Assembly (NCBI GenBank): GCA_964364425.1
Contig: CAYIMB010000016.1
Coordinates: 1-28,181, forward strand
Source: an uncultured Gammaproteobacteria bacterium
Lineage (GTDB): Bacteria > Patescibacteriota > Patescibacteriia > UBA9570 > JBBTWU01
DNA: 28,181 nucleotides
Direction: 5' to 3'
The position numbers were made by a program, and so were the translations under genes. The notes beneath the pieces were generated by a model that was given only the letters and a program-made list of their open reading frames with translations, made no database searches and was not told where the DNA came from. Position 1 is the first letter of the stretch. Each line of letters opens with the position of its first letter. Below are positions 779-28,181 of the stretch, piece after piece.

Positions 779-1219
779 ATGTCTACATTGGCCGAAAACA
801 AACAAGCCCGCCGCAGCTTCAAATTCTTAGACGAGTTTGAAGCTGGGATTGTATTAACTGGACCAGAAGTCAAATCGGCTAAACGGGGTTCAGTCAACTT
901 CCAGGGAGCTTACGTTTCCGCAGAAAACGGTGAATTATGGCTGAAAAACTTTCATATTTCTCCCTACGCCCCAGCAGCTTTCCGCAACCTGCCTCCCACC
1001 CGCCCACGGAAGTTACTGCTCAAAAAATCAGAAATCACCAGTTTACTGGGAAAAATGAAGACTCAGGGCTTGACATTGATCCCAAAAAATCTGTATACTC
1101 GCGGCGGACTTGTAAAAGTCCGGATTGCGTTAGCTCAAGGCCTAAAAACCAAGGACAAGCGTGCATTGATTAAAAAACGTGACGTGGACAAGCGCATTCG
1201 GAGTGCTTTACGCCGTTGA
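779..1219 (+). CDS. smpB: SsrA-binding protein SmpB
   Basis: 146-aa product with SmpB-like sequence throughout (GIVLTGPEVKS, NFHISPYAP, KLLLKKSEI..., basic C-tail). It is followed by a tmRNA gene. Confidence 0.9.
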   Translation: MSTLAENKQARRSFKFLDEFEAGIVLTGPEVKSAKRGSVNFQGAYVSAENGELWLKNFHISPYAPAAFRNLPPTRPRKLLLKKSEITSLLGKMKTQGLTLIPKNLYTRGGLVKVRIALAQGLKTKDKRALIKKRDVDKRIRSALRR

Positions 1220-1226
1220 AAATCGA
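1218..1226 (-). repeat. copy of over-represented 9-mer TCGATTTTC (revcomp on + strand: GAAAATCGA)
   Basis: Exact match. It overlaps the smpB stop codon. Confidence 0.6.
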
Positions 1227-1257
1227 ATTGCAACGCGTGATGCTAGCGCATCATTAA

Positions 1258-1650
1258 GGGGATGCTCAAAATTGATAGAACATTGATAGTTCTCGGTGCA
1301 AGCCGGTGGTCAACCTCACGTTACGAGGTTGAAAGAATACTTGCCAACGTATTCGAACAACTGAAAGCAAAAGTGGCCGGTTCATTCCGTGCCAACTTGG
1401 CTTTCAGCCCTGTAGCTTAAACCCTACAGCATCCTAACCGTTGACGCCTTCTAGGCGGATCTAGGGTGATATATAAGAAGGCTCGTTGTTTGCGCGCCGT
1501 GCGTAAAACAACTAGATTGGACACGGCTGACATGTGTTGTAGAGTGCCAGTTCATTTCTGCAGCGCATGGACACTTGAAAACTGGCTACGCTTGTAGTGC
1601 CGGAATGTGATATGCTCTAGACAGGGGTGTGATACCCCTCATCTCCACCA
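1258..1650 (+). ncRNA. ssrA: tmRNA (ssrA), one-piece, CCA encoded
   Basis: The 5' GGGGATG pairs with CATCTCC just before the 3' ACCA. The 3' end AGACAGGGGTGTGATACCCCTCATCTCCACCA matches E. coli GGACGCGGGTTCAACTCCCGCCAGCTCCACCA arm for arm. A PK1-like stretch GGTGCAAGCCGGTGGTCAACCTCACGTTACGAGG resembles E. coli GGUGCAUGCCGAGGGGCGGUUGGCCUCG. The tag frame GCC AAC TTG GCT TTC AGC CCT GTA GCT TAA (ANLAFSPVA*) has its stop in the loop of a CTGTAG/CTACAG helix, like helix 5. The gene sits directly after smpB. Confidence 0.65.
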
Positions 1651-1657
1651 TTATTTC

Positions 1658-5700: not shown

Positions 5701-6247
5701 CTTTTATTTCCTGAACAGCAAACTCATACTTCTCTACACCTTCTTCAGGCTCCCAGTCCCGAGGAAAATTCTTCACTTCAATGCGTACAGGAAGAAAATG
5801 ATGCTGAGAGTCTATATCCTCAAACGCTAAAAATCTGCGGCCACCTTCCTCTATCACCGGCAAAGTCACTTTTTTTCCTGGTGGATACTTCTCACTCCAA
5901 TGTTTTGCCGATTCAACTACCGCCCGTTGCCACTCTTGCTCAGCCTGCTGTTTCACCGGCTCTGACCCCACAATCTTCCCCTTGACTCTCTTTCCGTCTC
6001 TTGAAACAAAGGTGATCTCTAGATCAACAATATTTTGCAATGGATTAAATTTTGGTGGCACACCCTCAACCTCAACCATTGGTGGAGTAGTCCGCCCGCC
6101 TCCCACCATAAAAGCAACCGTCTCCCAAGGGCTTCTGCTCCCTGGTTTGAGTTGCATGGGATAGACTTGCTTAAACTCAAAGTCGATTTTCACTGGACCC
6201 TTGTCCGGTGGTGGTGGTTGCTGTCCTTGTTGTTGTCTTTTTGGCAT
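2750..6247 (-). CDS. giant hypothetical protein (1165 aa). Has Pro-rich linkers, a central coiled coil, and an internal SH3-like repeat pair. No signal peptide and no recognisable catalytic motif.
   Basis: A single uninterrupted 3.5-kb ORF. The poly-Pro spacers are PPPPDKGP, APPPPPMPDFGLPAPL and TTPPTPRPPGEPVILPAPPVG. The coiled coil is AEELARRTAEEAARTQERAQRKADL. The repeated module is GQIWRYDG...NFRVVRVDHEKGLVTVV versus GQIYAYTG...QFRITGLNTEKKIVSFII. I found no P-loop, HExxH or other catalytic signature. It is translationally coupled to the PP2C-fusion gene upstream (3-bp gap). Confidence 0.6.
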   Translation of the reverse strand: MPKRQQQGQQPPPPDKGPVKIDFEFKQVYPMQLKPGSRSPWETVAFMVGGGRTTPPMVEVEGVPPKFNPLQNIVDLEITFVSRDGKRVKGKIVGSEPVKQQAEQEWQRAVVESAKHWSEKYPPGKKVTLPVIEEGGRRFLAFEDIDSQHHFLPVRIEVKNFPRDWEPEEGVEKYEFAVQEIKENPRTKNLIVEVLSPEYAESEDQIKAWGKRVDERISKGKNHFMLSVDAVKEVKKDGEYVVLPNLVDPEFKFDAYVQVPKGWTPDQLKANDKGEVKLVYTEHAQARHKFQLLCYFEGFEPKKGVTPATAKAEPAGKGKELWDSLKGLVSPEGVALMEQLFIQLDSPELAAKGLSERLDVLRKLERLMAEERRKILANPEKFESDLAEEGRYKVLGLEKEKVSKEIQRVSAEIESAKKVLAKEGAEELARRTAEEAARTQERAQRKADLGEDIDEFRPLVQPNVEFRVTQEGLDIFYAEDVEALRQRKAELEKVYAVGDAWVRVGGKRKKEDGTRYLDQDFVSDLLLADGLVPILDGRITELERLASGAPASAPPPPPMPDFGLPAPLKVRAPTSAPDAVRPPEGEAQKLTAGEMNSWLNKNFFAVGEFLGLSASSKRTLEKMFGLTVVSEPLRIQSISVAQEEVELNLPDGTIGVMSIEQLYRMAQEMEGLANTVERAGIQTNHLVELGEEAVSSLLRSHLEEWIIKHPKQPIPTKVRVEGVVLVSGEVLLDVEGVDVGVVRVPLEAFAGLVTGKKVKVLQGAGPLEAEPSGQPSLERIRPTDRLVEYPLSPEVMVGQIWRYDGVPSRKNQLNPGGNFRVVRVDHEKGLVTVVTAKDEAAAGRAKSSAQPFMASREVWRGLPKTLVSGPRPEAKVGGVPVETAEVRLLSEIKAGQIYAYTGSDRPPFKINDQFRITGLNTEKKIVSFIILREEAEAKAKKQQVRPYGLRLDQWNNLKKTLLSGEPTTPPTPRPPGEPVILPAPPVGRGLVIEASYPPKVGNLEPPGSFTELIDLIRDRDLIELAKAEVKKRAGPFNALMSVFVGDPFGDMTRRIERIAKVSGDALVVNKTLQERLRDVMPAPSSVYAMFTELKQAEKSYRNAEALALKYTIDQFNQLLSGKKVGTEDDRVKMLESVNTELDHLQAANAKAHKVLELAPPAKPSS
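6183..6191 (+). repeat. copy of over-represented 9-mer TCGATTTTC
   Basis: Exact match, context aagTCGATTTTCact, inside the 1165-aa gene. Confidence 0.6.
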
Positions 6248-6250: not shown

Positions 6251-8644
6251 TTATTTCTTTGGTTGGGTCAAATCTTGAATCCGCTCCTGCAAATTTTCTA
6301 TACTATCCACCCAGAGCATAAAGTCTCCCACTTCTTCCATTGATTCTGGTTCAAACCTCTCCGGATATTTGGCCAGAGCTGCTTGCAGTTCCCTATAGAC
6401 TGGCTCAAATACTGTACCCCTAAACCGGCCCTGATCCAATTTTAACGCGTAGTTACCTGCTTTAAACCATATCCGTACAGACCAGATAGACTGTTCTGCT
6501 GCGTCTAACAGTGCATCAACCTCCTCAAGTTTATGGGATACGTGTAAATCGACCTGTTCTGTTTCTAACTTGCGCAGCCATTGCTGTGCGGGCAAAGCCA
6601 TTCGTTTCAGCGGCTTCCCGTCCCTACCTAAAGCAAGCATAACTACTATATTTGGAGTGTCAGGGTCGTTTGGTGGAAAGACTTCAGTCACCTGCATCTT
6701 CTGCGTACCCCGGTCGTCAACCAATTCAAATACTCTCCCCTTCAAGGATTCAAAATCAGCCTCCAACCAAGCTAATATGTAACTTTGCTCAACCTGCTGA
6801 GACTGGCCCTCCTGTTGAGCTTCCAAGTTTTCAAAAGCATTCTGCCAATCTTTATTTTGCACCATAGTAGCGTAGCTCGCTTTTAGCTCTGGCCAGGCTT
6901 GGTCAAACTGATCCATAGCCTCAAGCAAGTAGTTCTTACGCACCGGTATTTTTTCCGCCCAGGGCCTGTCTAGCTTCACCCGTCCTTCTAACGCGGCTAA
7001 ATTATCCTCTAAGCTCCAAATCTCCCACAACAGGGCATCAGCAGCTTGTTCATTCTTTTGCATGTAACGCAAATCATGCTCCTGCAATCTTTTGCTTCTC
7101 AGTTCTGCACTTACAGAAGTGTGTTCAACTGAAGGCAACGGTGACAGCTCCGCCCTGGGAGGTGCCGGTTGCCAAGTTGGTAGTGGCGGCAACGGCGGTG
7201 GGACAACTCTTACTGGTTCAGAGGCCCAAGTAGGGTCTGGCGGCAACGGCGCCGGCCCAGGTTCTTCCTCTTCAACTTCAACCAGGACGGGAAGCTTAGC
7301 CCTCCCCCGGCGCGCTTCATCCACCGGGGTCTTTTCTTCTGCGTACCCTGGCCCGATTGGTTCTAAATGTGGGGCGGAGCGACTGGTCGGAGTAAAAGAT
7401 GTCACTTCAGTCCGGTCTGCATCTAGATGTCTAGGCAAAACGGGAACAGCCTGCCGCCTGACCAGTATGGTCTTGTGGTCTGCCCCACCGGCCCCCCTGC
7501 CGCCCGGTTGAAACAATTTCAATATATTATTTCTAGTTTCCTCTGCATTCCGGCCCACCAAATGGCCAAGCTCAGACAACGGATCAAGCAGTTTAGAAAA
7601 CGCACGCATGCTGTCATACGCTGGATCAAACACCCACCGATCTGTTTTTTTATCTTTCTTGGTTGGAATCACCCGCAAGCCCAAAGGCGCTAGTATGCCG
7701 TCTGTGACAGAGATGACGGTGTCATCCGGTTGCAATTCGAACTCCTCTACGGATACATCTGCATCATCATAGCCTAACACCTTGACTGGATCAACCCAGA
7801 TAATTCGTTTTATTCTTTCTAAATCAGTACGCGCCAGATAGTTTAATTCAGACCGAATTTTTTCTATTGGCGTGGTGGCTAAATACTCACTCAGCTTGGC
7901 CTTCAGGTCTTTTGGTGGGACGTTATAGATATCAACAAAGCGTTGTAGCCGGCTGGTTGGCTTAGAACAAAACACTACCTTCTCATTTCTGATCACCAAG
8001 TTCATGGCATCACCCAACACAAATGAATATAACTTGTTTCCCTCAATCAATGTTCCGGCTACAACTGATCCGCCTTCTGCATCTGGACCAAGAGCTTCCC
8101 TCACCGCGGCATGGGCTTTATGTCCAATCAACTTAAGTCGATTTTCAGGGGTATTTTTTACGCTGCGAGTGCGTAATTCCCCCTGCAACATCCCCGCCTG
8201 TTCAGGTGTAGTCCACTGGCGTATAGCCCTCAAGAGAGCTTGTGTGGCAATTCTTCCCTTCCCTCCATGACTCACTCCATCAGCCACAACCCCTATATCT
8301 AACAAAGGATCCACAAACACACCATCTTCATTATTTTCCTTCTTTCCGTGATCTGTTGAGTAGGCCACTTCTACGGCAGGAAGAACTATCTGGTCAGCAT
8401 AGTCGGTAATAGCAGGATCATCCTGGTACACCGGCATTCTGCCTACAAAATCTTCATAGGCTCTCCGTTGTTCAGGATTCAGGGCTGCTAGTCGTTCTTT
8501 AAACACGCGTTGAGCTGCCGGCTCAGCTGGTTCTCCAACCAACCCCGTGCCTGGGCCCGCCTTTGGCGGCGCACCAAATAATTTGCCTAATCCAAGGCTA
8601 TCTAGTAGTCCTCTCCCTGGGGTTTTGCCGGTAACGTCTGCCAT
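6251..8644 (-). CDS. large PP2C-type Ser/Thr phosphatase-domain protein (797 aa) with Pro-rich linker and a C-terminal domain of unknown function
   Basis: PP2C motifs appear in order. They are HGKKENNEDG (G..R..NED-like), IGVVADGVSHGGKGRIATQAL (VADGMGGH-like), GGSVVAGTLI...FVLGDA (GTT...GDS-like), VISVTDGILAPLG (LCSDGL-like) and GGADHKT (GGEDN-like). The metal-ligand Asp residues are retained. These are followed by a PLPPDPT...PPPLPPLPTWQPAPP linker and about 330 aa of unassigned sequence. Confidence 0.55.
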   Translation of the reverse strand: MADVTGKTPGRGLLDSLGLGKLFGAPPKAGPGTGLVGEPAEPAAQRVFKERLAALNPEQRRAYEDFVGRMPVYQDDPAITDYADQIVLPAVEVAYSTDHGKKENNEDGVFVDPLLDIGVVADGVSHGGKGRIATQALLRAIRQWTTPEQAGMLQGELRTRSVKNTPENRLKLIGHKAHAAVREALGPDAEGGSVVAGTLIEGNKLYSFVLGDAMNLVIRNEKVVFCSKPTSRLQRFVDIYNVPPKDLKAKLSEYLATTPIEKIRSELNYLARTDLERIKRIIWVDPVKVLGYDDADVSVEEFELQPDDTVISVTDGILAPLGLRVIPTKKDKKTDRWVFDPAYDSMRAFSKLLDPLSELGHLVGRNAEETRNNILKLFQPGGRGAGGADHKTILVRRQAVPVLPRHLDADRTEVTSFTPTSRSAPHLEPIGPGYAEEKTPVDEARRGRAKLPVLVEVEEEEPGPAPLPPDPTWASEPVRVVPPPLPPLPTWQPAPPRAELSPLPSVEHTSVSAELRSKRLQEHDLRYMQKNEQAADALLWEIWSLEDNLAALEGRVKLDRPWAEKIPVRKNYLLEAMDQFDQAWPELKASYATMVQNKDWQNAFENLEAQQEGQSQQVEQSYILAWLEADFESLKGRVFELVDDRGTQKMQVTEVFPPNDPDTPNIVVMLALGRDGKPLKRMALPAQQWLRKLETEQVDLHVSHKLEEVDALLDAAEQSIWSVRIWFKAGNYALKLDQGRFRGTVFEPVYRELQAALAKYPERFEPESMEEVGDFMLWVDSIENLQERIQDLTQPKK
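8138..8146 (+). repeat. copy of over-represented 9-mer TCGATTTTC
   Basis: Exact match, context aagTCGATTTTCagg, inside the PP2C-fusion gene. Confidence 0.6.
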
Positions 8645-8823: not shown

Positions 8824-8901
8824 GGAGCGGTGGTGTAGCTGGCCCAACACGCCTCCCTGTCACGGAGGAGACCGCGGGTTCGAATCCCGTCCGCTCCGCC
8901 A
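8824..8901 (+). tRNA. tRNA-Asp (anticodon GTC), CCA encoded
   Basis: Cloverleaf is GGAGCGG/CCGCTCC acceptor, GTGT/ACAC D-stem, CCTCC-CTGTCAC-GGAGG anticodon arm (anticodon GTC), GCGGGTTCGAATCCCGT T-arm, discriminator G, then CCA. The sequence is near-identical in architecture to E. coli tRNA-Asp. Confidence 0.88.
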
Positions 8902-9369
8902 GTCCGAACGACTTGATCTCTCAACAATTCTATCAAAGGGTTTCTTATATATAACATTGAGGTTTTTGTCTGTGAGGGAAGAGTTCGAAAGTAAAAAATT
9001 CAATAAATCTTGCTTTTCATCAGGATTGGCCTTTTTATAGAGAATACTGGCCATATTTGAAAGTTCTAAAATATCTATGCCAGTTTTGTAGTAATCGATA
9101 TTTGCCTTAGTGTAGCGAGCTATTTTTTCTGTCAGATCTTTAATAGCTGTTTCGTATTCAGTAGCTTTAGAATTATAAAAATCTTTAGTGATTGTCCCAT
9201 CTAATCTATCCTCATAAAGTGTACTAAGAGTTTTCTCCAACCGCTTCTTTTCAGCTTCTAGACGTTCTTGGGCTTGATCCTCTGTGTCCCTCTTAGAATA
9301 CAAAGACTGTTTCAGACCTGCGGCAACGTACGCAATCGCTTCCTGGGGTATTTTAAGGCCGTCTAGGTG
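8860..9369 (-). pseudogene. truncated large serine recombinase (C-terminal coiled-coil/DUF4368-like region only). The reading frame runs into the 3' end of tRNA-Asp.
   Basis: The frame is open from the stop at 9370-9372 down to 8860. It reads ...AEKKRLEKTLSTLYEDRLDGTITKDFYNSKATEYETAIKDLTEKIARY...LLNFLLSNSSLTDKNLNVIYKKPF. This matches the LYED.L.G.IS.E.F / coiled-coil / ...IEIYY C-terminal module of large serine recombinases. The roughly 350 aa that should precede it (catalytic, recombinase and zinc-ribbon domains) have no room, since only about 210 bp lie before the next gene. The ORF-track M at 9303 is a TTG. Confidence 0.45.
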
Positions 9370-9379: not shown

Positions 9380-9388
9380 GAAAATCGA
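9380..9388 (-). repeat. copy of over-represented 9-mer TCGATTTTC
   Basis: Exact match on the minus strand, context ataTCGATTTTCagt, in the recombinase-remnant region. Confidence 0.6.
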
Positions 9389-11924: not shown

Positions 11925-11978
11925 AAAAAAGAAAATACCGCCTCCTCAAGTCTTGTGGACGAGAGGGGCGGTATTTCC
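11925..11978 (-). terminator. rho-independent terminator for the upstream minus-strand membrane-protein gene
   Basis: On the minus strand the sequence reads GGAAATACCGCCCCTCTC-gtccacaagacttg-GAGGAGGCGGTATTTTC followed by TTTTTTATGG. That is a GC stem of about 10 bp plus a U-tract, directly abutting the NHL gene start. Confidence 0.5.
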
Positions 11979-13411: not shown

Positions 13412-13474
13412 AGTTGTTGACAGAGTTGGAGAGAGGAGAGGATTGAACCGACTCGCTTGGCCTTAGCCTGCAAA

Positions 13475-13483
13475 TCGATTTTC
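13475..13483 (+). repeat. copy of over-represented 9-mer TCGATTTTC
   Basis: Exact match in the intergenic region of the GC-rich island, context aaaTCGATTTTCgaa. Confidence 0.6.
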
Positions 13484-15457: not shown

Positions 15458-15466
15458 TCGATTTTC
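15458..15466 (+). repeat. copy of over-represented 9-mer TCGATTTTC
   Basis: Exact match in the intergenic region, 20 nt before the 15487-15537 inverted repeat. Confidence 0.6.
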
Positions 15467-17509: not shown

Positions 17510-17756
17510 CTAATAACTCTGAGATCTTCCCTTGGTCAAACCCCACAATCACGTCTTCTTGGTTACCTTTTTTCACTACAATCACCGGAACTCCCATTTG
17601 TCCAGATTTCTGAATCATTTCCTCTGCTTTCTTCTCATCTGCGGCGACATCTATGCTTTCAAACTCTACGCCGTGATGCTGAAAGAATTCTTTGGCCATT
17701 TTGCAATACGGACAGGTGGGTGTTGAATATACGGTCACTTGTGCTGTCTGAGCCAT
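17496..17756 (-). CDS. glutaredoxin/NrdH-like redoxin (CPYC)
   Basis: 86-aa product VTVYSTPTCPYCKMAKEFF...GVPVIVV, a classic glutaredoxin-fold active site. Confidence 0.8.
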   Translation of the reverse strand: MAQTAQVTVYSTPTCPYCKMAKEFFQHHGVEFESIDVAADEKKAEEMIQKSGQMGVPVIVVKKGNQEDVIVGFDQGKISELLGVSA

Positions 17757-17759
17757 AGG

Positions 17760-18455: not shown

Positions 18456-18476
18456 GCAGCGGAGTATACCACATTT

Positions 18477-19484: not shown

Positions 19485-19862
19485 TCACTCCTGTTCAAAG
19501 GCTTTGCGTAACCGCTTGGCCAGCGCCGGGTCTAGTTTAGGCAACACTTCCACAAAATGAACCAAGGCCGCTGCACCAAATTCCCCTTCCAAGCTGTGCA
19601 TAAAATCTTCTGTGGCTTGAAATACGGCATCTTTAGGATTAACTTTGGCTTCATACCTGTAGCCACGGCCCACCAGCCGGCGGCCCAACAATCCCTTTTC
19701 AGCTAAACGACTCATCACGGTCATGACGGTAGTATAGGCCACAAGGCTGCCCTGTTGAGACAAACACACATGCACGTCACGGACTGAAAATCGATCTGAA
19801 GGAGTTGGGGCTGCCCAGAACAGTTGCATGATTTGTCGTTCAAGTGAGCCTAAGAGTCGCAT
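19485..19862 (-). CDS. BlaI/MecI/CopY-family transcriptional repressor
   Basis: Winged-helix N-terminus MRLLGSLERQIMQLFW...FSVRDVHVCL...AYTTVMTVMSRLAEKGLL. The likely start is the Met at 19862. The ORF-track start at 19895 overlaps the upstream gene. Confidence 0.8.
   Translation of the reverse strand: MRLLGSLERQIMQLFWAAPTPSDRFSVRDVHVCLSQQGSLVAYTTVMTVMSRLAEKGLLGRRLVGRGYRYEAKVNPKDAVFQATEDFMHSLEGEFGAAALVHFVEVLPKLDPALAKRLRKAFEQE
19786..19794 (-). repeat. copy of over-represented 9-mer TCGATTTTC (extended AGATCGATTTTCAG)
   Basis: Exact 14-mer shared with the 27853 copy, inside blaI. Confidence 0.6.
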
Positions 19863-20439: not shown

Positions 20440-21332
20440 ATGTGTTGAGGAATTGAACATTCTTTTCCATAGCACAGACTGCTTTCAAACTGAATGGTCG
20501 CGTGATCTACATGGTAGGTGTGTCTCAAGAGTACATCGATTTTCTCATACAGGGCATCATTCTGCTGAATGGTCTTTGACCCCGTCATCACATGTCCACT
20601 CATGGCGTAGCGCCCGCTGGTGACCGTCCACACATGTACATCATGCACTTTTTTTACTCCGGGAATCTTCAACAGGTCCCGTTTCAAGGCTTCCACATCA
20701 ACGTCCTTAGGTGTGGCTTCAAGTAAAATACCGACTGACTCATTAATTAAGGAAACTGCCCCGCGAATAATAAACAAGGCAATCAACATGGAAACAAGAG
20801 CGTCTATTTGCGTCCAGCCGGTAAACCAAATAATCAGGGCGCTGGCCACCACGCCAACGGAGGACAACGTATCAGACAAGACGTGCCAAAAAGCCGCTTT
20901 AATGTTGAGGTTCTCTCCTTTAGCCCGCTCCCGCTTCAGTAGGACTGCTGCTAGAATATTAGCTGCTAACCCAATCACACCAAAAATCAGAGCGACTGCA
21001 GGAAGAAGCTCTGTTGGTTGATACAGGCGCTGCAAACCGGTATAGAAAATGGACATGGCAATCAGCATGAGCAGGACGCCGTTCAGAAGAGAGGCTAAGA
21101 CTTCAGCCCTCAGCCAGCCGTAGGTGCGTTTAGCGCTCACCGGTCTTAAGGTCAAGCGTAGGGCGAGTAAGGCTAGCCCAATTGCCAACACATCCACAAA
21201 CACATGGCCGGCGTCTGACAGCAGTGACAAGCTATTTGACCAAACACCACCTATCATTTCAAGCACTAAAATGGCCAGACTGCTGGCCAGAGCAATAATC
21301 AGCGTCCGTTGTCTTGATCTCACTGGAGTCAT
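20436..21332 (-). CDS. cation diffusion facilitator (CzcD/ZitB-type) metal efflux transporter
   Basis: Six TM helices, the HVLSD/HVFVD motifs (GHVFVDVLA, FWHVLSDTLSSVG) and a C-terminal cytoplasmic domain (VHDVHVWTV). Confidence 0.85.
   Translation of the reverse strand: MTPVRSRQRTLIIALASSLAILVLEMIGGVWSNSLSLLSDAGHVFVDVLAIGLALLALRLTLRPVSAKRTYGWLRAEVLASLLNGVLLMLIAMSIFYTGLQRLYQPTELLPAVALIFGVIGLAANILAAVLLKRERAKGENLNIKAAFWHVLSDTLSSVGVVASALIIWFTGWTQIDALVSMLIALFIIRGAVSLINESVGILLEATPKDVDVEALKRDLLKIPGVKKVHDVHVWTVTSGRYAMSGHVMTGSKTIQQNDALYEKIDVLLRHTYHVDHATIQFESSLCYGKECSIPQHI
20536..20544 (+). repeat. copy of over-represented 9-mer TCGATTTTC
   Basis: Exact match inside the CDF gene. Confidence 0.6.
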
Positions 21333-22289
21333 TTACATCAGCTTATAAGAATCTTTACCTAAAAATACCCGGTAGGCTTCGTCTACGGTTTTGTTCCCGT
21401 ACACAATAGAACTAATAGCATCTGTCATACGCACCGCGTCTTCCAGAGGATGTTCATGTACATTTCTGCCCGTGGCACTGCCGGCCGCATGGGCATAGTG
21501 AATGGTGTCATACACCATGCGTAAGAAATCCTTGGGTGTCAGAATATCACCGCCGGAGACAATCACCCCGGTCCGTCCGGCCGCTCCCGTGGCCTCTCTT
21601 AAAGACCGGGGACCTTGGGTGGGTACATTTACTTTCACAAAGTCACTACCTAAAGAACACGCTACACCCGCCCCTCCGGCAATTAAATGAGCATCTTTGG
21701 GATCTTTCATGCTCCGGCTTCTGGGGTAAGCCCAAATGACCGTCAGTAATCCCAATTCATGCGCTTGGGCAATCAGGCGTCCGGCCTCTGCCATCATCTC
21801 AGCTTCAAATTCACTGCCCACATACAAGGTGTATCCAATTCCAACAATATTCAGTTTTCCATTCTTCTGTAAATCAAGCACATCCTCCATGGTACACAAC
21901 GCTTTACTCAAGGGATCTTTATCTTTCGCTGAAACGGCATTGGTACGAGAATTCATTTTGACCAAGTAAGACACATCCGGAAAATCCGGACCGTATTTGG
22001 CAATCAACCCATGTTGCGCGGCAAACACGCCTATAGTTCCCGCGGAAGCAATTTGAAACAAGTGTTCCGGATCATTATTTTCTTCCGGAATATCTTGACC
22101 AAAAAAGTCGTCATTCAAGTGCTCAATTTTTTGATCACCGGCAAACAACATCAGACGTCCGGTGGATTTGGTGACTTGCAAATAATTACTGATATACGTC
22201 TTACGCGCACTCGCCGGGACGTTGGCCGGAACATGCACGTCACTCGCCTTGAGTGTCTGGACTTTCAGATGTTTGGATTTTTTTTGCAT
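21333..22289 (-). CDS. fba: class I fructose-bisphosphate aldolase (archaeal/DhnA type)
   Basis: TIM-barrel aldolase. RLMLFAGDQKIEH resembles the archaeal class I FBA N-terminal motif. It has the VKVNVP Schiff-base region and GVIVSGG. This is the type commonly found in small-genome bacteria. Confidence 0.6.
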   Translation of the reverse strand: MQKKSKHLKVQTLKASDVHVPANVPASARKTYISNYLQVTKSTGRLMLFAGDQKIEHLNDDFFGQDIPEENNDPEHLFQIASAGTIGVFAAQHGLIAKYGPDFPDVSYLVKMNSRTNAVSAKDKDPLSKALCTMEDVLDLQKNGKLNIVGIGYTLYVGSEFEAEMMAEAGRLIAQAHELGLLTVIWAYPRSRSMKDPKDAHLIAGGAGVACSLGSDFVKVNVPTQGPRSLREATGAAGRTGVIVSGGDILTPKDFLRMVYDTIHYAHAAGSATGRNVHEHPLEDAVRMTDAISSIVYGNKTVDEAYRVFLGKDSYKLM

Positions 22290-23205
22290 GCCAAAAGTAT
22301 AGCATATCCGTAAGTTGGGTACGAGGGTGCGTAGTACTCAAGTATTGGAGCCAAGCCAAAATTCCAGGGGGTCGATTTTCTTGCGCCACTCGTCCATCTG
22401 GGTACACCAGAAAGCGTAACGTCCCCTGCTGATCCGTGCGTTGAACAGGAACGCCGGCTTGTTCTAGGGTTTGCAGCGTTTGAGCCGCGGGATGTCCATA
22501 TCTGTTACGTACACCAACGGAAATGACTGCCAGTTGCGGTTGAAGCTGTGTGACGAGTGCGGTGGTGGTGGAGGTTGTGCTACCATGGTGGCCGACTTTT
22601 AGAATTTCCAGCGGGAGGGAGGGCGGTGTTTCACTCAACCAGCGTTCCCAAGCTGACTGCACGCGTGACGCCGGGGCGTCTGATGTTAAAAAAATGTCGG
22701 TTATACCAAGGCTGACTCCCAGAACTACAGCTTGATCGTTAGTGGACGTGTCAGAAGACGGAGGGGCATTTGGATCCGGAGACAGGACGGAAATGTTGAA
22801 GGCATCCAGGGTGAAGTGGTCGCCTGCTTGGGGAAATCGAACTTGGGCGTTTTCTGCTTGCACCAGTTGCCACAGGCGCTCAGCCGTTTCTGTATGCGGT
22901 TCAACGCTGGGGAGCCAAACTTCATGCACGGTGTACGTTTCCAATACATCAATCAAACCACCAGCGTGATCCGCGTCATAGTGAGTGGCTACCAATATGT
23001 CAATCTCGCCTACGCCTACAGCAGAGAGCGGGAGGAGGACGCTCCCTGGCGCACCACCGTCAACCAATAGAGTGTGGCCTTGATCCGTTGTGAGAAGAAT
23101 GGCGTCGCCTTGTCCCACGTCCAAGAGATACAGCCCATTGGCCGGCGGAGGCGGGAGCAAGAGCAGCCCGGCTAGAACAATGATTCCAAGGAGACGCTTG
23201 CCCAT
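22240..23205 (-). CDS. comEC: ComEC/Rec2 C-terminal metallo-beta-lactamase domain ORF (separate frame from the N-terminal part)
   Basis: Has its own Met and hydrophobic segment (MGKRLLGIIVLAGLLLL), then MBL motifs LDVGQGDA, ATHYDADHAGG and KVGHHGS. It overlaps the upstream ComEC N-terminal ORF by 34 bp out of frame. Confidence 0.7.
   Translation of the reverse strand: MGKRLLGIIVLAGLLLLPPPPANGLYLLDVGQGDAILLTTDQGHTLLVDGGAPGSVLLPLSAVGVGEIDILVATHYDADHAGGLIDVLETYTVHEVWLPSVEPHTETAERLWQLVQAENAQVRFPQAGDHFTLDAFNISVLSPDPNAPPSSDTSTNDQAVVLGVSLGITDIFLTSDAPASRVQSAWERWLSETPPSLPLEILKVGHHGSTTSTTTALVTQLQPQLAVISVGVRNRYGHPAAQTLQTLEQAGVPVQRTDQQGTLRFLVYPDGRVAQENRPPGILAWLQYLSTTHPRTQLTDMLYFWHAKKIQTSESPDTQGE
22372..22380 (+). 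repeat. copy of over-represented 9-mer TCGATTTTC
   Basis: Exact match inside the comEC MBL ORF. Confidence 0.6.
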
Positions 23206-24557
23206 GGGAGTTGTGCGCTGAATTGCGCGGATCTAATGATTAGCTGCAGCGGCAGAGCGGCGAGCCAGGTGATGAGCGGATGGTGAATGCCTAGGGCTGA
23301 CAGTCCTACAGCCAAGGCTGAAGTGGCACAAGCGAGCGGCAAGAGCGGGAGGACTATCACGTTTACCGGAATGGCAACTACAGAAATACGTTCAAATTTC
23401 CAAATAATATAGGGCAAGGTCAGGACAGTCACGGCTACACTAGCTCTGACAGTTTGGGAGGTGTCCCACACCGGAGCTTGCCAGCCTTCTAAAAAAGCCC
23501 ACCCGTCTGACACCAGCGCGAGCGTAGCCAACACCGAGAGGTGGAAAGACACATCCCAAAGTAAAACGGCAGGGTTATGGAACACCATGAGTGCTGCGGC
23601 CAAAAGAAGAACGCGTCCGGGTGACTGCGGACGGGCATGCATGCGGGCCGTAGCGCAAACTGCGGCCATAACTGCGGCCCGCACCAAAGACGCAGACGCA
23701 CCGGTCATCAACACAAACGCACCCACCCCAGCAAGTCCAATCCACATGGCTTGGCGGACGCCAAACCCTAAACGCACCAACACCCATAACAGCACTCCGC
23801 ACAACACCGTGACGTTCCACCCTGAAAGAGCCACAATATGAGACAGTCCAACCCGTTGAAACAGTTGGTTGAACTGGGTATTCCACTCCGCGCGTTCGCC
23901 AATCAACAACCCGCTGGCTAACCAAGACACCGGCGGTTGAAATGTTGTTTCGATTTGCTGCTGCAACCTGCCTCGCATTTCTGCGGCCAGCACTTTCAGT
24001 GTAAACCAAGTCAGCGGCGGCAGCTGGCCGCTTGGCCAGAAGTTTTGCTCTGCCACTTCCACTGACTCACACTCCCCCGCCACTCCCTGCGCTAAATCCG
24101 CGTGTCCCCAATCAAACAGACTTTCTGTTTCGGTTGGTGCAAGTTCACATCTGGCCCAAAACGTCTCACCCACATTCACCGCTTGTTTAAAATCAGCTGA
24201 TGTTTTTGACAATGGTCCAGGTCTATCCCACTGGAGCACGGCCTCCCACCCAAATTCCCGGTGTCTCACCGCACTCACCACCACTGCGCCTTCCCACACT
24301 TCCGGTTGCCGCTGATTCACAGCTGAATTCCACACCTCCGCGCGCCAATACCCAAGTATTCCACCTCCTATCAAAAAGAGGAGTAACACCAAAAAGTCGA
24401 TTTCCTTTTGTCTCACCCACCAGATCAGCCAAACGACGCTTATGCCACCAAGCAGCCAAGTTATCCACCACACCCAACCCTCAAGGAGTCCAAGTGCCAC
24501 ACCAAAAAAGAGTCCCCAGCAGGCGGCTGGAACGTACCAGTGTTTCATATATCTCAA
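23172..24557 (-). CDS. comEC: ComEC/Rec2 N-terminal membrane/competence-domain ORF
   Basis: Polytopic membrane protein with the competence-domain signature GLSHIVALSGWNVTVL. It ends 34 bp inside the MBL ORF. Confidence 0.7.
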   Translation of the reverse strand: MRYMKHWYVPAACWGLFFGVALGLLEGWVWWITWLLGGISVVWLIWWVRQKEIDFLVLLLFLIGGGILGYWRAEVWNSAVNQRQPEVWEGAVVVSAVRHREFGWEAVLQWDRPGPLSKTSADFKQAVNVGETFWARCELAPTETESLFDWGHADLAQGVAGECESVEVAEQNFWPSGQLPPLTWFTLKVLAAEMRGRLQQQIETTFQPPVSWLASGLLIGERAEWNTQFNQLFQRVGLSHIVALSGWNVTVLCGVLLWVLVRLGFGVRQAMWIGLAGVGAFVLMTGASASLVRAAVMAAVCATARMHARPQSPGRVLLLAAALMVFHNPAVLLWDVSFHLSVLATLALVSDGWAFLEGWQAPVWDTSQTVRASVAVTVLTLPYIIWKFERISVVAIPVNVIVLPLLPLACATSALAVGLSALGIHHPLITWLAALPLQLIIRSAQFSAQLPWASVSLESLF

Positions 24558-25072: not shown

Positions 25073-25108
25073 CAACGACCACCAACCCGCAAGGGAAGGT
25101 GGTCGTTG
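25073..25108 (+). terminator. stem-loop (11-bp perfect stem CAACGACCACC/GGTGGTCGTTG) in convergent intergenic region, followed by TGCTGTGTG
   Basis: Seen directly in the sequence, 14 nt after the small ORF stop. Two further palindromes follow (CGTGCCATGGCACG + GATATTTT, and CATGCGTACGCATG) before the glmS stop at 25202. Confidence 0.4.
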
Positions 25109-25201
25109 TGCTGTGTGAAAAAACTCAAATTCTTTAAGGTTTCAGGCGTGCCATGGCACGGATATTTTACGACACATGCGTACGCATGCTCGTGCAGACT
25201 T

Positions 25202-27058
25202 TTATTCCACCGTCACCGACTTCGCCAAGTTCCGCGGTTGGTCCACATCCCGGCCCAACACCACTGCACAATAATAGGCAAATAACTGCATAGGCACCAC
25301 GGCCAGCATAGGCGTCAACATTTCTAAAGTCTTTGGAATATACACTACTGCATCCACCATGGACTTCACTGTCTCGTCCCCCTCTGTAGCCAAAGCAATA
25401 ATATTTCCACCGCGGGCTTTTATCTCTTGCAAGTTGGACACATTTTTCTCATAGACTGAATCACGCGGCGTCAAAATAAAACTAGGAAAACTATCATCAA
25501 TCAAAGCTATTGGCCCGTGTTTCATTTCACCACTCGGATACCCTTCCGCATGCAAATATGACACCTCTTTCAACTTCAGCGCACCTTCCATGGCCATGGG
25601 GTACAAATATTTGCGACCCAAGAAATAAAAATGTGTAAATTTGGCGTACTGTTTGGCCAGCTGGTCTAATTCAGATCGATTGGATAACACGGTTCTAAGC
25701 TTGGCTGGTATATCCCGCAACTCTTCTGCAATCCTCTTACCGGTGACTAGAGACATGCCGCGCTGACGTCCCAAAAATAAAGTGATCAGAGCCAACACTG
25801 TAAGTTGTGCCATGGTCGCCTTAGTGGAAGCCACGGCAATCTCCGGTCCAGCATGCGTGTACACACCACAATCCACTTCACGCGCAATAGTTGAACCCAC
25901 CACATTGACCACACCAATAGTTAGAGCGCCTTTGCGCTTAGCCTCTCGCAAGGCCGCCAAGGTATCTGCGGTTTCTCCGCTTTGTGAAATCACAATCACC
26001 GCCGTGTTCTCATCCAACACGGGCTTCCTGTATCTAAATTCAGAGGCGTACTCCACCTGCACGGGCAACCCGGCATATTCTTCCAACATGTACTCACCTA
26101 CCAACCCGGCATAATACGCCGTGCCGCAAGCAATAATGATGACTTGATTCACTTTACTCAACCGTTCGGCTTGTTCATTCAGCCCACCTAAGTGCGCTAT
26201 TCCCTCTTCCACAATCAAACGTCCACGCAAGGCATTTTCCACTGCGTCCGGCTGCTCCATAATTTCCTTCAACATGAAGTGTGGGTAGCCGGATTTCTCT
26301 GCTTGCGTCACATCCCAATCAACGGTTGTGGTCTGCCGGTCCAACGTTTCGTTTTGCAAGGTAGTGATTTTATATCCTGCCGGAGTCAAGGTCAGAATAT
26401 CCCCGTCTTCTACATAAATTACATCTCTGGTGTGTGGCATGATAGCCGTTACGTCTGAAGCCACCACGTATTCTCCCGGCGCCACCACGCCAAGCACCAA
26501 GGGAGAACCTAAACGAGCTGCCACAATTTTCTCTGGTTCAGCAGAAGATAAAATAGCTAATCCATACGCACCTTGGACTAAGGCCAAGGCCTCAGTCACT
26601 GCTTGCTCAAGTGGCTTTTTGTGACCCGCCTTTGGCTCGTCACTTTTCATCATCTCCTCTATTAAATGCGGCAAGACCTCTGTATCAGTTTGCGTGGTAA
26701 ACTCATGGCCACGTTCCTTGAGCATATCGCGCAGCTCATGATAATTTTCAATAATGCCATTATGTACCACAAAAATTTCACCTTGGCAGTCAGCATGCGG
26801 ATGCGCATTCAGGTCAGTTGGTGCGCCGTGGGTAGCCCAGCGAATATGCCCCACGCCTACGGTCCCCGGAAGGTCATGCTCCTGAAGTTCATTGGCCAAG
26901 TTCGTCAGCTTGCCCTGCTTTTTACACACCCCCATGGTCTTTCCATCCACCACAGCCAAGCCAGCCGAGTCATAGCCCCGGTATTCCATCCGACGCAAGC
27001 CTTCCATCAGGATTGGCTGGACGTCTTTCTTACCAATGTATCCAATAATTCCACACAT
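25202..27058 (-). CDS. glmS: glutamine--fructose-6-phosphate aminotransferase (isomerizing)
   Basis: N-terminal MCGIIGY (Ntn Cys), tandem SIS domains and C-terminal ...KSVTVE, over the full 618-aa length. Confidence 0.95.
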   Translation of the reverse strand: MCGIIGYIGKKDVQPILMEGLRRMEYRGYDSAGLAVVDGKTMGVCKKQGKLTNLANELQEHDLPGTVGVGHIRWATHGAPTDLNAHPHADCQGEIFVVHNGIIENYHELRDMLKERGHEFTTQTDTEVLPHLIEEMMKSDEPKAGHKKPLEQAVTEALALVQGAYGLAILSSAEPEKIVAARLGSPLVLGVVAPGEYVVASDVTAIMPHTRDVIYVEDGDILTLTPAGYKITTLQNETLDRQTTTVDWDVTQAEKSGYPHFMLKEIMEQPDAVENALRGRLIVEEGIAHLGGLNEQAERLSKVNQVIIIACGTAYYAGLVGEYMLEEYAGLPVQVEYASEFRYRKPVLDENTAVIVISQSGETADTLAALREAKRKGALTIGVVNVVGSTIAREVDCGVYTHAGPEIAVASTKATMAQLTVLALITLFLGRQRGMSLVTGKRIAEELRDIPAKLRTVLSNRSELDQLAKQYAKFTHFYFLGRKYLYPMAMEGALKLKEVSYLHAEGYPSGEMKHGPIALIDDSFPSFILTPRDSVYEKNVSNLQEIKARGGNIIALATEGDETVKSMVDAVVYIPKTLEMLTPMLAVVPMQLFAYYCAVVLGRDVDQPRNLAKSVTVE

Positions 27059-27074
27059 ATCCAGAGTAGTGTAG

Positions 27075-28181
27075 CTAGCTTCTGCGTGCCCGTAAATAGG
27101 CCTCCATGAACCCCTCTACATTCCCATCTAACACCGCATCCGGGTCGCTCACTTCATAGTTTGTTCGGTGGTCCTTGACCATCTTATACGGGTGCAACAC
27201 ATACGACCGAATCTGATTCCCCCATTCAGCTGACTGAAATTCTCCACGCAATACCGCCTTCTCCCGTTCTAACTCTTCCATTTGTTTTTGGGCTAACTTG
27301 GAACGCAAAACTTTCATGGCTGTAGCTTTGTTTTGGAGTTGTGAGCGTTCATTCTGACACACCACGGTAATTTTGCTGGGCAAGTGGACTATGCGCACTG
27401 CTGAATCCGTGGTATTCACCCCTTGTCCGCCTTTTCCACCGGCTCTAAATACATCTATGCGCAAATCTTTTTCCGGAATTTCAATCTCTTGTTGAGCCGC
27501 TTCACTCAGCTCCGGCAAAATTTCCACCAAGGCAAAGCTGGTTTGACGCAAAGCGTCCGCGTTAAACGGTGACTGCCTGACCAAGCGGTGCACGCCATGC
27601 TCGGATTTTAAATATCCGTACGCATATCTTCCATGCACTTCAAACATGGCGGATTTTATTCCCGCTTCTCCCCCGCGACTGGTATCAATCATTTTAACTT
27701 CCCATCCCTTCTTCTCGCAAAAGCGCAACAACATTCTGAGCAACATCTCTGCCCAGTCTTGCGCATCCACTCCACCTGCTCCAGCGTGCACGGCCACTAT
27801 GGCATTTGAAGTGTCATGCGTTTCACCTAACAACACGGTAAATTCTAAATCTGAAAATCGATCTTCAAGTGTTTGCAGCTTTTTGCGCAACGTCTCCCGA
27901 ATCTCAATTTTTGTCTCTTCTGGTTCTTGCTCAGCCAACTCAGCGTAATCTATAGCTTCTTGAACTTCTTGTTTGATTTGTTTCCAAGTGTCCAGCTCTT
28001 GTTTAATCTCAGATGCTTCACGCCCAAGAGCGCTGGCACGCTGTTGATTAGACCAAAAATCAGGAGCTGCCATGAGTCCTTCTACTTCGGATACGCGAGC
28101 CTCAAGTTGATCCTCATGAATCAACTGCCAAGTTTGATCAATCCGACCTTTCTGCTCGTTTAATTTTTGGAGATTTTCCTT
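27075..28181 (-). CDS. prfB: peptide chain release factor 2; 5' end beyond window; no programmed +1 frameshift
   Basis: SPF tripeptide (RQSPFNADALRQTS) and GGQ motif (AGGKGGQGVNT). The frame stays open upstream of the TTG at 28124 to the window edge (KENLQKLNEQKGRIDQTWQLIHEDQLE...). This aligns with the RF2 N-terminus across the region where E. coli has the CUU UGA frameshift. Confidence 0.88.
   Translation of the reverse strand, partial: KENLQKLNEQKGRIDQTWQLIHEDQLEARVSEVEGLMAAPDFWSNQQRASALGREASEIKQELDTWKQIKQEVQEAIDYAELAEQEPEETKIEIRETLRKKLQTLEDRFSDLEFTVLLGETHDTSNAIVAVHAGAGGVDAQDWAEMLLRMLLRFCEKKGWEVKMIDTSRGGEAGIKSAMFEVHGRYAYGYLKSEHGVHRLVRQSPFNADALRQTSFALVEILPELSEAAQQEIEIPEKDLRIDVFRAGGKGGQGVNTTDSAVRIVHLPSKITVVCQNERSQLQNKATAMKVLRSKLAQKQMEELEREKAVLRGEFQSAEWGNQIRSYVLHPYKMVKDHRTNYEVSDPDAVLDGNVEGFMEAYLRARRS
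27853..27861 (-). repeat. copy of over-represented 9-mer TCGATTTTC (extended AGATCGATTTTCAG)
   Basis: Exact match inside prfB. Confidence 0.6.

Follow-up and report, generated by a model that had tools for sequence, protein, structure and literature searches.

The closest described counterparts of the word reported here are the cyanobacterial HIP1 and the uptake sequences USS and DUS. HIP1 (Highly Iterated Palindrome 1, GCGATCGC) is palindromic and enriched 15-300-fold (PMC5861425). Its function, long obscure, has lately been tied to natural transformation (PMC5861425; bioRxiv 10.1101/2024.09.10.611283; 10.64898/2026.06.24.733823), with methylated HIP1 raising transformation (bioRxiv 10.1101/2024.09.10.611283) and a role as an uptake sequence being proposed (bioRxiv 10.64898/2026.06.24.733823). 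USS and DUS are uptake tags; they are asymmetric, and approximately half of them occupy terminators, frequently paired in inverted orientation (bioRxiv 10.1101/2025.10.24.684340). In the Pasteurellaceae (USS) and Neisseriaceae (DUS), these tags occur at ~0.5-1 per kb, equally in both orientations and mostly within genes at tolerated positions, with clade-specific dialects, partial positional conservation accompanied by turnover and fewer copies in variable genes; the genomes encode a DNA-import channel, and the receptor is ComP or a minor pilin. In Campylobacter jejuni, DNA uptake requires a methylated RAATTY mark.

The window analysed here, a 28,181-nt stretch of patescibacterial DNA, contains 12 exact copies of the 9-mer TCGATTTTC where 0.24 are expected from dinucleotide-preserving shuffles (maximum 2 copies; 0/100 shuffles reached 12). 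TCGATTTTC tops the over-representation ranking among the 8-, 9- and 10-mers of the window, and low-order Markov models predict 0.1-0.4 copies. The sites and the features needed to place them are as follows, exact copies being those of TCGATTTTC:

1218..1226, minus strand: exact copy, flanked by the smpB stop codon and the tmRNA gene; 1218-1231 form the 14-bp element GAAAATCGAATTGC
6183..6191, plus strand: exact copy, antisense in a 1165-aa ORF, 60 nt from the ORF start; K-I-D
6544..6552, minus strand: position-8 variant TCGATTTAC within a 797-aa ORF
8138..8146, plus strand: exact copy, antisense in the 797-aa ORF; E-N-R
9380..9388, minus strand: exact copy, intergenic
11269..11277, plus strand: exact copy in an NHL-repeat gene, K-I-D; included in the exact 16-mer TTCAGATCGATTTTCA, which occurs a second time at 19785-19800
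11668..11676, plus strand: exact copy in the NHL-repeat gene, K-I-D
13470..13483: GCAAATCGATTTTC, the one 14-bp element in the window that is perfectly palindromic, in the spacer separating the two genes of a GC-rich island (62-73% GC); it holds an exact copy at 13475(+) and TCGATTTGC at 13470(-)
15458..15466, plus strand: exact copy just beyond the GC-rich island
16533-16541, minus strand: near-copy ACGATTTTC
19786..19794, minus strand: exact copy, sense in blaI, D-R-F
20536..20544, plus strand: exact copy, antisense in a CDF transporter gene
22240..24557, minus strand: comEC, the DNA-import channel gene, as two overlapping ORFs, with a metallo-beta-lactamase domain (22240-23205, minus) and a Competence domain (23172-24557, minus)
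22372..22380, plus strand: exact copy, antisense in the metallo-beta-lactamase ORF (ComEC C-terminal part)
22832..22840, minus strand: position-8 variant TCGATTTCC in the metallo-beta-lactamase ORF
23950..23958, plus strand: position-8 variant TCGATTTGC in comEC
24397..24405, plus strand: position-8 variant TCGATTTCC in comEC
27853..27861, minus strand: exact copy, sense in prfB, D-R-F; the 14-bp element here (27853-27866) reads GAAAATCGATCTTC

A preliminary description of this DNA had reported the over-represented 9-mer, and its central observation holds. All 11 copies that it listed are present, but the total is 12, as the copy at 11668(+) had been missed. Its near-copies exist, with some coordinates requiring correction (TCGATTTCC at 24397; ACGATTTTC at 16533-16541(-)), and further N-variants lie at 6544(-), 13470(-), 22832(-) and 23950(+). 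The 14-mer said to occur twice does so (AGATCGATTTTCAG, at 19786(-) and 27853(-)), and the copy within the GC-rich island (13475) and the encoded ComEC were likewise correctly recognised.

Across the clade, the conserved word is TCGATTTNC rather than the 9-mer TCGATTTTC, position 8 being free throughout. Our sample consisted of ~190 kb of syntenic regions rather than whole genomes; site counts refer to 187.6 kb of clade DNA. A second, independent contig of the same species (L085, 15.7 kb) carries four copies of TCGATTTTC against 0.03 expected, giving 16 copies in 43.9 kb for species A. TCGATTTNC occurs 23, 21 and 21 times in species A, B and C (expected 0.4-0.5 each) and at 95 sites overall, i.e. 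approximately one per 2 kb (~0.5 per kb). The same enrichment was found in four to five related genomes, while no comparable word turned up in 80 control loci, 1.26 Mb in total, drawn from further Patescibacteria and from other phyla (best P ~1e-11 in controls vs 1e-20 to 1e-28 in the clade). The enrichment is limited to a small clade of groundwater Patescibacteria. The density of the element is ~0.6 per kb and, for almost every clade contig, lies between 0.57 and 0.80 per kb; contig D2 is almost without sites. Dialects are apparent, species A favouring T at position 8 and species B and C requiring A at -1 (ATCGATTTNC).

Both TCGATTTNC and the 9-mer correspond to the core plus a single arm of a 14-bp imperfect palindrome, GNAAA-TCGA-TTTNC. 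The better both arms match, the stronger the enrichment, which runs from 4-fold to ~900-fold: elements with arm matches of (4,0) number 4 against 1.0 expected, (4,2) 21 against 0.69, (3,3) 15 against 0.81, (4,3) 24 against 0.17 and (4,4) 8 against 0.01. Flanking preferences extend to A at -3 (~70% of sites) and G at -5. We found no hairpin formation by the word, so it is presumably read as duplex DNA. The palindrome, the free position 8 and HIP1 as the nearer analogue had been overlooked in the preliminary description. On account of this palindromic architecture, HIP1 is a closer analogue than USS/DUS. Both are hyper-abundant short palindromes, mostly intragenic and in all frames, with ortholog conservation over background, lineage variants and a type II methylase-like core (CGATCG/GATC in HIP1; TCGA/ATCGAT here). 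The enrichment of the word, ~20-900-fold according to arm match, compares with 15-300-fold for HIP1. However, the sequence and the phylum differ; HIP1 is a GC-rich perfect octamer, whereas the word is 14 bp long, its arms are AT-rich and positions +/-6 are free, and most of its copies combine one perfect and one partial arm.

A palindrome whose enrichment scales with both arms is also what the binding energy of a homodimer would lead one to expect, and the word may accordingly mark sites of an abundant dimeric chromosome-organising protein (nucleoid structuring, segregation, occlusion) unconnected with uptake, with selection preventing A-tract/TCGA/T-tract sites from falling below a minimum density along the chromosome. 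We regard this as a serious but rather doubtful alternative. The A4-N4-T4 composition, which suggests DNA that bends readily and has a narrow minor groove, the roughly even density across nearly all clade contigs and the excess conservation of sites all suit it, and the periodicity of HIP1 led to the same proposed role (PMC5861425). Against it, the spacing of sites is no more regular than random, and genes of at least 2 kb, including the giant surface-protein genes, are site-poor (0.20 per kb against 0.59, P = 7e-4), which sits poorly with a requirement for even coverage; no protein emerged as a candidate. The site-specific proteins Noc, SlmA, MatP and ParB rely on tens of sites rather than hundreds per Mb, and we know of no abundant nucleoid protein that creates sharp words of 8-10 positions.

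Orientation bears on another alternative, put forward in the preliminary description, that the word acts as a polar signal for genome maintenance, Chi-like for RecBCD/AddAB or KOPS/SRS-like for FtsK. Chi and KOPS/SRS (FtsK/SpoIIIE) are likewise over-represented 5-8-mers running through genes at one per few kb, the density here is Chi-like (~1 per 2-3 kb) and the exact copies split 8 (+) to 4 (-) in the window alone. With more data, on contigs with uniform GC skew and gene orientation, the skew disappears: 45 vs 50 for TCGATTTNC and 21 vs 22 for the exact 9-mer, with 38 sites sense and 47 antisense to genes. The known signals are polar and leading-strand skewed; the word is unskewed, far more enriched, AT-rich rather than G-rich and quasi-palindromic, so it cannot carry polarity. 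We therefore consider this reading highly improbable.

The placement of sites within genes shows how the word is accommodated. Sites are only weakly enriched in intergenic DNA (0.79 per kb against 0.49, P = 0.15), and reading frames in the window are mixed (KID four times, ENR twice, DRFS twice, SIF once; three copies intergenic). Before GAx, Ile is normally encoded as ATC in 8% of cases, but in 60% where AAATCGA results (odds ratio 18.7, P = 4e-19); likewise, Arg is encoded as CGA in 60% of cases in the T-CGA-TTT context vs 10-12% elsewhere. The word has been forced in at the DNA level, via synonymous codons. Sites arise by in-frame point substitution without insertion, as alignment with motif-free orthologs reveals no indels. 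The flanks of the window copies can be aligned to ~16 nt only, which rules out a longer repeat. A purely artefactual origin, whether in composition, in codon or peptide usage, in a dispersed mobile repeat or in an excision scar, merits almost no credence: the rare trinucleotides TCG and CGA do make the word look extreme under simple models, but their rarity lowers the expectation, and Markov models of order 2-3 give 0.1-0.5 copies. This candidate was refuted by the three frames, both orientations, the codon odds ratio, the unrelated flanks and the indel-free alignment. The preliminary description had similarly dismissed a codon or peptide artefact, a longer dispersed repeat and a promoter element, and this is borne out: the signal is genome-wide, operates at the DNA level irrespective of coding context and is no promoter element.

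Sites are retained in orthologs at 64/207 positions vs 11.3 expected, ~6x the retention of average 9-mers, yet turnover is fast, with 26/31 site positions occurring in one genome only; conservation of position, a check proposed in the preliminary description, is partial. The CDF transporter copy (20536) reads G-AAA-ATC-GAT in the aligned position of all three species, A, B and C, although the amino acid before it varies (E, V, L), and the comEC site at 24397 has GAAAATCGA at the same column in species B. The commonest difference between motif-bearing and motif-free orthologs is C/T at the CpG (TCGA vs TTGA). This would suit a by-product or target of a methyltransferase and repair system centred on TCGA/ATCGAT, in which VSP-like biased or methylation-dependent repair enriches a methylated word without dedicated function; we consider it unlikely. 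TCGA and ATCGAT are classical type II methylase sites. HIP1 abundance follows orphan methylases recognising its inner bases (PMC4390886). However, single-base biased repair cannot yield eight enriched flanking positions or 100-900-fold ratios, there is no clear depletion of the deaminated forms TTGATTTTC and TCAATTTTC (3 copies where 5.3 are expected), site conservation lies far over background and no DNA methylase gene was found among the loci examined. For HIP1, Xu et al. argued from conservation against neutral replenishment (PMC5861425).

We tentatively favour, as the best explanation, a tag of self-DNA that a symmetric protein would read in natural transformation. Self-DNA tags (USS, DUS and HIP1) are its closest resemblance, and the likeness to USS/DUS noted in the preliminary description extends to density (~0.5 per kb), strand equality, dialects and partial positional conservation with turnover; its interpretation overall is partly supported. 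The word also shares with USS/DUS a mostly genic placement where changes are tolerated and a paucity of copies in variable genes. RAATTY would offer a further parallel as a palindromic word recognised in transformation by way of a self-specific mark, but that 6-mer is frequent by composition, whereas the word is hyper-enriched. Species A, B and C all carry a syntenic comEC, which may be linked to the motif; besides comEC, the ~190 kb examined contained no receptor, DNA methyltransferase or competence gene. Several observations count against an uptake tag. USS/DUS are asymmetric and about half terminator-associated, while no site here lies in a terminator-like hairpin or an inverted pair, which the preliminary description had proposed as a check, and the intergenic enrichment is weak, as given above. 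The sole perfect palindrome of the window, GCAAATCGATTTTC, lies inside apparently foreign GC-rich DNA, and an uptake-drive model would not predict it in recent acquisitions. Contig D2 is nearly bare, a symbiont importing DNA for nucleotides has no obvious need of self-preference and selection for any dimeric DNA-binding protein would equally give graded two-arm enrichment.

Under the self-DNA tag explanation, a sequence-specific, probably two-fold symmetric protein would read the word as duplex DNA, possibly after methylation of the TCGA/ATCGAT core, a mechanism lately proposed for HIP1 in cyanobacteria, and the word would serve in the uptake or processing of conspecific DNA by competence machinery including ComEC. 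Word-bearing DNA would be preferentially taken up or recombined, and this uptake bias (molecular drive), together with selection, would write the word wherever it is tolerated, mostly in synonymous codons. Drive and selection may thereby hold the number of sites constant while single sites turn over, leaving specificity free to drift between lineages of a phylum from which self-DNA tags have not been reported.

Twelve copies of the 9-mer TCGATTTTC are present in the window of 28,181 bases, eight on the + strand and four on the −, compared with a mean of 0.24 and a maximum of 2 in dinucleotide-preserving shuffles of the same sequence. The preliminary description had located 11 of these copies, all correctly; the twelfth lies at 11668(+). 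The top over-represented 8-, 9- and 10-mers of the window are this 9-mer and its sub-words. A C follows TCGATTTT in 12/12 cases and a T precedes CGATTTTC in 12/13, and permitting one mismatch raised the count to 23 matches (6.5 expected), with the excess almost wholly at position 8. Three copies are intergenic, and the coding copies specify K-I-D (four), E-N-R (two), D-R-F (two) and S-I-F (one), in three frames and both orientations. No alignment was found between the flanks of the copies, and a repeat search returned nothing longer than a 16-mer common to two of them, in keeping with the earlier claim that the word is not part of a longer dispersed repeat.

The window is a whole contig (28,181 bp) of a Patescibacteria (Candidate Phyla Radiation) MAG from Hainich groundwater, here species A, whose closest named relatives are Candidatus Kerfeldbacteria (GlmS and RNR, ~62–67 % identity; FtsA, 74 %). 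It carries smpB, a tmRNA gene, infC, rpmI and rplT; three large surface-type ORFs; two DsbA-like genes, rpe and rpiB; blaR, blaI, a DUF3105 gene, a CDF transporter gene and deoC; and comEC, glmS and prfB. Features referred to by position are as follows.

779–1219: smpB, with the tmRNA gene directly after it
1258–1650: tmRNA gene (Rfam, 91 bits)
8824–8901, + strand: tRNA-Asp, overlapping the end of the 147-aa ORF
8860–9303, − strand: 147-aa ORF, weak match to the C-terminal part of a CcrC-type serine recombinase (E = 3e-4)
12041–13411, − strand: 456-aa ORF with no family match, in the GC island
13583–14764, − strand: 393-aa SPFH/Band-7, HflC-like protein, in the GC island
22240–24557: split comEC (also at 11938–14153 of locus L083 and 16338–18526 of locus L084)
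27075–28181: prfB, called at 349 aa with a TTG start near the contig end

Several of these features deserve comment in their own right. Taken at its longest, the infC ORF starts at 1607 and overlaps the 3′ end of the tmRNA gene; the real start of IF3 is thus likely to be non-canonical or to lie further downstream. The 147-aa ORF may, from its weak recombinase match, be an integrase remnant beside a tRNA gene. Orthologs of prfB in species B and C are 369–372 aa long; a programmed +1 frameshift is usual in RF2. Two ORFs overlapping by ~25–34 nt make up comEC, one with the Competence domain and one with the metallo-beta-lactamase domain, and the same split in species A, B and C points either to a two-gene arrangement or to a frameshift, conserved in both cases, rather than to an assembly error.

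Close relatives of species A were found in Logan assemblies only, and protein searches of the JGI collection returned no clade member. The relatives were identified as follows.

A2: FtsA 97 % identical
Species B: GlmS 79 % identical
Species C: GlmS 81 % identical
Species D: RNR 84 % identical to that of species C
Species E: FtsA 91 % identical

After overlap merging, clade DNA amounted to 187.6 kb, covering two syntenic neighbourhoods in five or six related genomes. A second species A contig (L085, 15.7 kb, around the RNR gene) carries four exact copies against 0.03 expected, and the density in species A thus holds on two independent contigs. Across the 187.6 kb we counted 43 exact 9-mers and 95 occurrences of the generalised word TCGATTTNC (~3 expected); Markov models of order 0–3 predicted 0.4–1.4 copies per genome, against 21–23 observed. 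Word density was 0.5–0.7 per kb in species A, B, C and E (~190 kb sampled), the expectation being 0.01–0.02 per kb. The excess seen in the window persists in the sampled clade DNA.

Nothing comparable was found in glmS neighbourhoods of other Patescibacteria and of further phyla (80 control loci, 1.26 Mb in total), where the exact 9-mer occurs 0–3 times per locus. When each locus was screened for its own best 8- or 9-mer, clade loci returned P values of 1e-20 to 1e-28 and the best control 1e-11. Outgroups with GlmS identity of ≤66 % showed no enrichment of the word and no dialect of it. A, A2, B, C and E are motif-rich, and their nearest relatives free of the motif are Kerfeldbacteria-like (FtsA ~75 %, GlmS ~66 % identical). 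The word thus belongs to a single clade at genus or family level. Within the clade, contig D2 (L092; SRR22388048_439016) is near-bare, with one element in 15.5 kb against 0.57–0.80 per kb on the other contigs, and its ftsA-ftsZ part is also site-poor though relatives bear sites there; this lineage may be losing the word.

Scanning viral contigs for GAAAATCGATTTAC gave 120 loci but, for phages, only a false lead. Two phage fragments, L096 and L113, appeared motif-rich as a result of multiple testing: 20 kb of the contig of L113 (L214) and 79 related phages were at background. Locus L144, a piece of a 150-kb viral contig (IMGVR_UViG_3300019477_000049), was likewise rejected as a motif-bearing phage, being simply, if extremely, rich in TCGA-containing words; its 14 kb hold TTCGAAT 25 times and TTTCGAA 22 times, a compositional oddity distinct from the clade word. 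Separately, a Saccharibacteria MAG contig (L064; CAYIBQ010000011.1) contains CTGCAGGA 11 times in 17.6 kb (0.57 expected, P ~3e-11), which may represent over-representation of a different word, unrelated to that of the clade and built on a PstI-type site, in a second lineage of Patescibacteria.

Across the clade, the sole free position of the word is position 8, which is T in 16/23 cases in species A and takes all four bases in species B and C. The latter two also need A at −1 (19/21 and 19/26), giving lineage dialects of TCGATTTTC in species A and ATCGATTTNC in species B and C. The left flank of sites with a perfect right arm is biased as well (−3 is A in ~70 %, −2 a purine in ~85 % and −5 G in ~40 %), and this bias is the mirror image of TTTNC. 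We scored both arms of all 302 TCGA sites.

Arm scores at TCGA sites in clade DNA (matches to T, T, T, C; 0–4 per arm)
Scores (4,4): observed 8, expected 0.01 (about 900-fold)
Scores (4,3): observed 24, expected 0.17
Scores (4,2): observed 21, expected 0.69
Scores (4,1): observed 30, expected 1.37
Scores (4,0): observed 4, expected 1.0
Scores (3,3): observed 15, expected 0.81 (19-fold)

All classes below these were at or under expectation. Together with the mirror-image flank, the scores identify the element as an imperfect 14-bp palindrome, GNAAA-TCGA-TTTNC, of which the 9-mer is the core plus one perfect arm. Most copies are imperfect, typically with one arm perfect and the other partial, as opposed to the two-arm form GAAAATCGATTTTC. 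At an arm sum of ≥5 there are 113 elements in the 187.6 kb, at 0.57–0.80 per kb in all contigs but one (controls, 0.10 per kb); at ≥6, there are 68 in clade DNA versus 25 in the 1.26 Mb of controls. A hairpin or cruciform was rejected since the element has no stable single-strand fold, from which we naturally infer that the word is recognised as duplex DNA by a putative symmetric protein. The only perfect 14-bp palindrome of the window lies in the inner spacer of the GC island, a stretch of 62–73 % GC (12000–15200) within a ~47 % GC genome that was probably acquired horizontally.

Codon usage places the force on the element at the level of DNA. TCG and CGA are rare in the clade genomes and CpG is mildly depleted; of all TCGA sites, ~40 % are motif sites. 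ATC encodes only 8 % of isoleucines that precede an Asp or Glu codon, a share that rises to 60 % when the preceding codon ends in AA and AAATCGA is formed (odds ratio 18.7, P = 4e-19), and arginine is CGA in 60 % within the T-CGA-TTT context versus 10–12 % elsewhere. The low ATC usage before Asp and Glu is part of a wider avoidance of C ahead of G-starting codons of every kind: in coding sequences of A, A2, B, C, D and E, third-position C is strongly avoided there, ATC accounts for 3–8 % of Ile codons before G versus 22–45 % before other bases, and avoidance of TC-G (CpG at the codon boundary) is unusually steep. As ATC is shunned before any G-starting codon, restriction avoidance specific to TCGA was rejected as the reason for the rarity of TCGA outside the motif. 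A peptide or codon artefact is rejected on the three frames and both orientations, with the synonymous-codon context test decisive, which upholds the preliminary description on this point. In codon alignments of orthologs, sites arise through in-frame point substitutions, commonly ATT/ATC or TTGA/TCGA, with no indels, which excludes insertion scars and, with the unrelated flanks, a longer repeat or MITE scar. At column 265 of the CDF transporter, species A, B and C all retain G-AAA-ATC-GAT, although the residue before it is E, V or L. The synonymous-codon signature indicates that a 14-bp DNA word is able to override codon preference genome-wide, in a genome assumed to be ~1 Mb, as is typical for the phylum.

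The sites show no polarity. Counts on the two strands were 45 versus 50 for TCGATTTNC and 21 versus 22 for the exact 9-mer, the contigs being uniformly positive in GC skew with most genes in one orientation; relative to transcription, 38 sites are sense and 47 antisense. Chi and KOPS, which had been put forward as candidate functions, are strongly orientation-biased with replication, and this lack of skew, together with the quasi-palindromic form, excludes both. A promoter or terminator element is also rejected: orientation to the nearest start is inconsistent, which agrees with the earlier view as regards promoters, and no terminator-like hairpin contains a site. Nor did the suggested enrichment in terminator-like inverted pairs materialise, as no inverted pairs were found besides the palindrome itself.

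About 90 % of sites are intragenic and ~10 % intergenic, and the higher intergenic density (0.79 versus 0.49 per kb coding) is not significant (P = 0.15). In genes of ≥2 kb, sites are three times sparser than in shorter ones (0.20 versus 0.59 per kb, P = 7e-4); these long, site-poor genes include those for the surface proteins of 2,700–2,800 residues and the RNR gene, which is highly constrained. The apparent clustering at gene boundaries in the window (median 84 versus 251 nt, P ~0.01) resolved in the larger data into a deficit deep inside long genes, the relative position of sites within genes being flat. Regular spacing of ~1.9 kb was similarly discarded: five of 11 window gaps measure 1.8–2.0 kb, and a coefficient-of-variation test was not significant in the window or in species B and C. 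The giant proteins of species C, D and E (2,746–2,835 residues; L091 1–7530, L092 1–7372, L093 1–7347) consist of a T4SS_pilin domain followed by Big_5/TIG repeats; their genes lie upstream of ybeY-dgk-ftsA-ftsZ and are nearly motif-free (0–1 site in 7.4 kb).

In a first ortholog set, 26 of 31 distinct site positions were present in one genome only and five were shared. Over all gene pairs, a site remained a motif in the ortholog in 64/207 comparisons, far above the 11.3 expected from the mean 9-mer identity of the same gene pairs, which are phylogenetically non-independent. The number of sites is thus maintained; single sites enjoy protection well beyond background, and each lineage keeps gaining new ones independently. 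Element density was 0.72 per kb in genes for which an ortholog was sampled and 0.45 in singletons (P = 0.07), with incomplete coverage of orthologous regions.

With polar, peptide, codon and mobile-element readings excluded, what remains is a short word that would be recognised with high specificity, in either orientation and nearly anywhere, with density mattering more than position. By comparison with described systems, the known bacterial words of such a profile are USS and DUS, the proven uptake tags of Pasteurellaceae and Neisseriaceae, and HIP1 of cyanobacteria. REP and MITE elements, in contrast, have a longer conserved unit or stable hairpin and are mostly intergenic, whereas the clade word has unrelated flanks, no hairpin and ~90 % intragenic sites. 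Like USS and DUS (over-represented hundreds of times, at ~1 per kb along the chromosome), the clade word is far over-represented (0.5–0.7 per kb in the sampled regions), lacks replication- or transcription-strand polarity and shows lineage-specific dialects. It differs in being palindromic and in having no copies in terminators, where about half of USS/DUS lie, often as inverted pairs. USS and DUS also have preferential uptake, with ComP or a minor pilin as the cognate receptor, and protein–DNA structure modelling has been done for ComN with USS (PMC12616744); from the clade loci only comEC is seen, which is syntenic in species B and C.

In form, the closest known word is HIP1, a palindrome with a methylase-type core that is 15–300-fold enriched and conserved between orthologs (PMC5861425). 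The clade palindrome is likewise over-represented (19- to ~900-fold by arm score) and kept between orthologs above background; HIP1, however, is GCGATCGC or a close variant in cyanobacteria, and the clade word is GNAAATCGATTTNC in a Patescibacteria MAG. The HIP1 core is methylated by orphan methyltransferases and is spaced periodically at 10–90 kb. No DNA methylase gene was found in the clade loci examined, and an origin of the word as a by-product of a methylase and repair system ranks third among the explanations and seems improbable. Methylated HIP1 is reported to raise natural transformation up to 100-fold (preprint 10.1101/2024.09.10.611283), and HIP1 abundance to co-vary with DNA-uptake genes (preprint 10.64898/2026.06.24.733823).

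The description that suits the element best is that of a new highly iterated imperfect palindrome of HIP1-like type, present in one clade of Patescibacteria. Competence machinery is believed to be the route by which Patescibacteria obtain DNA and nucleotides. Weighing this presumed reliance with the USS/DUS/HIP1 profile, the HIP1-transformation preprints and the syntenic comEC, we tentatively rate a transformation-linked self-tag as the most likely function, one that would be read by a dimeric protein, possibly acting after methylation of TCGA/ATCGAT. Sites for a chromosome-organising protein rank second, as a rather unlikely alternative. Two observations are not neatly accommodated by any model, namely the sole perfect palindrome of the window in a foreign-looking GC island and the near-bare contig D2. 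The uptake-sequence idea of the preliminary description is thus the leading, if unproven, hypothesis.

To our knowledge, Pasteurellaceae and Neisseriaceae are the only groups in which DNA uptake has been established to use sequence-specific self-tags, HIP1 having been drawn into this story only recently. The literature searched contained no uptake sequences in Patescibacteria and no account of the clade word as a genomic signal, and an extreme, clade-restricted word would carry the self-tag phenomenon into the Candidate Phyla Radiation. The word also offers a handle on uncultivated cells, as a methylome target, as a DNA-affinity probe for the putative reader protein, and as a phyletic marker, carried by species A, B, C and E but by none of the outgroups, for tracing co-inherited genes. 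Among such genes the reader might be a DNA methyltransferase for TCGA/ATCGAT, a minor pilin, a ComEA-like protein or a helix-turn-helix dimer. That it is a true self-recognition (uptake/transformation) sequence, the first in the phylum and the first in the form of a 14-bp palindrome, with a dimeric and possibly methylation-dependent receptor, is a doubtful proposition; if true, it would mean that ultra-small symbionts reliant on imported DNA distinguish conspecific from foreign DNA.
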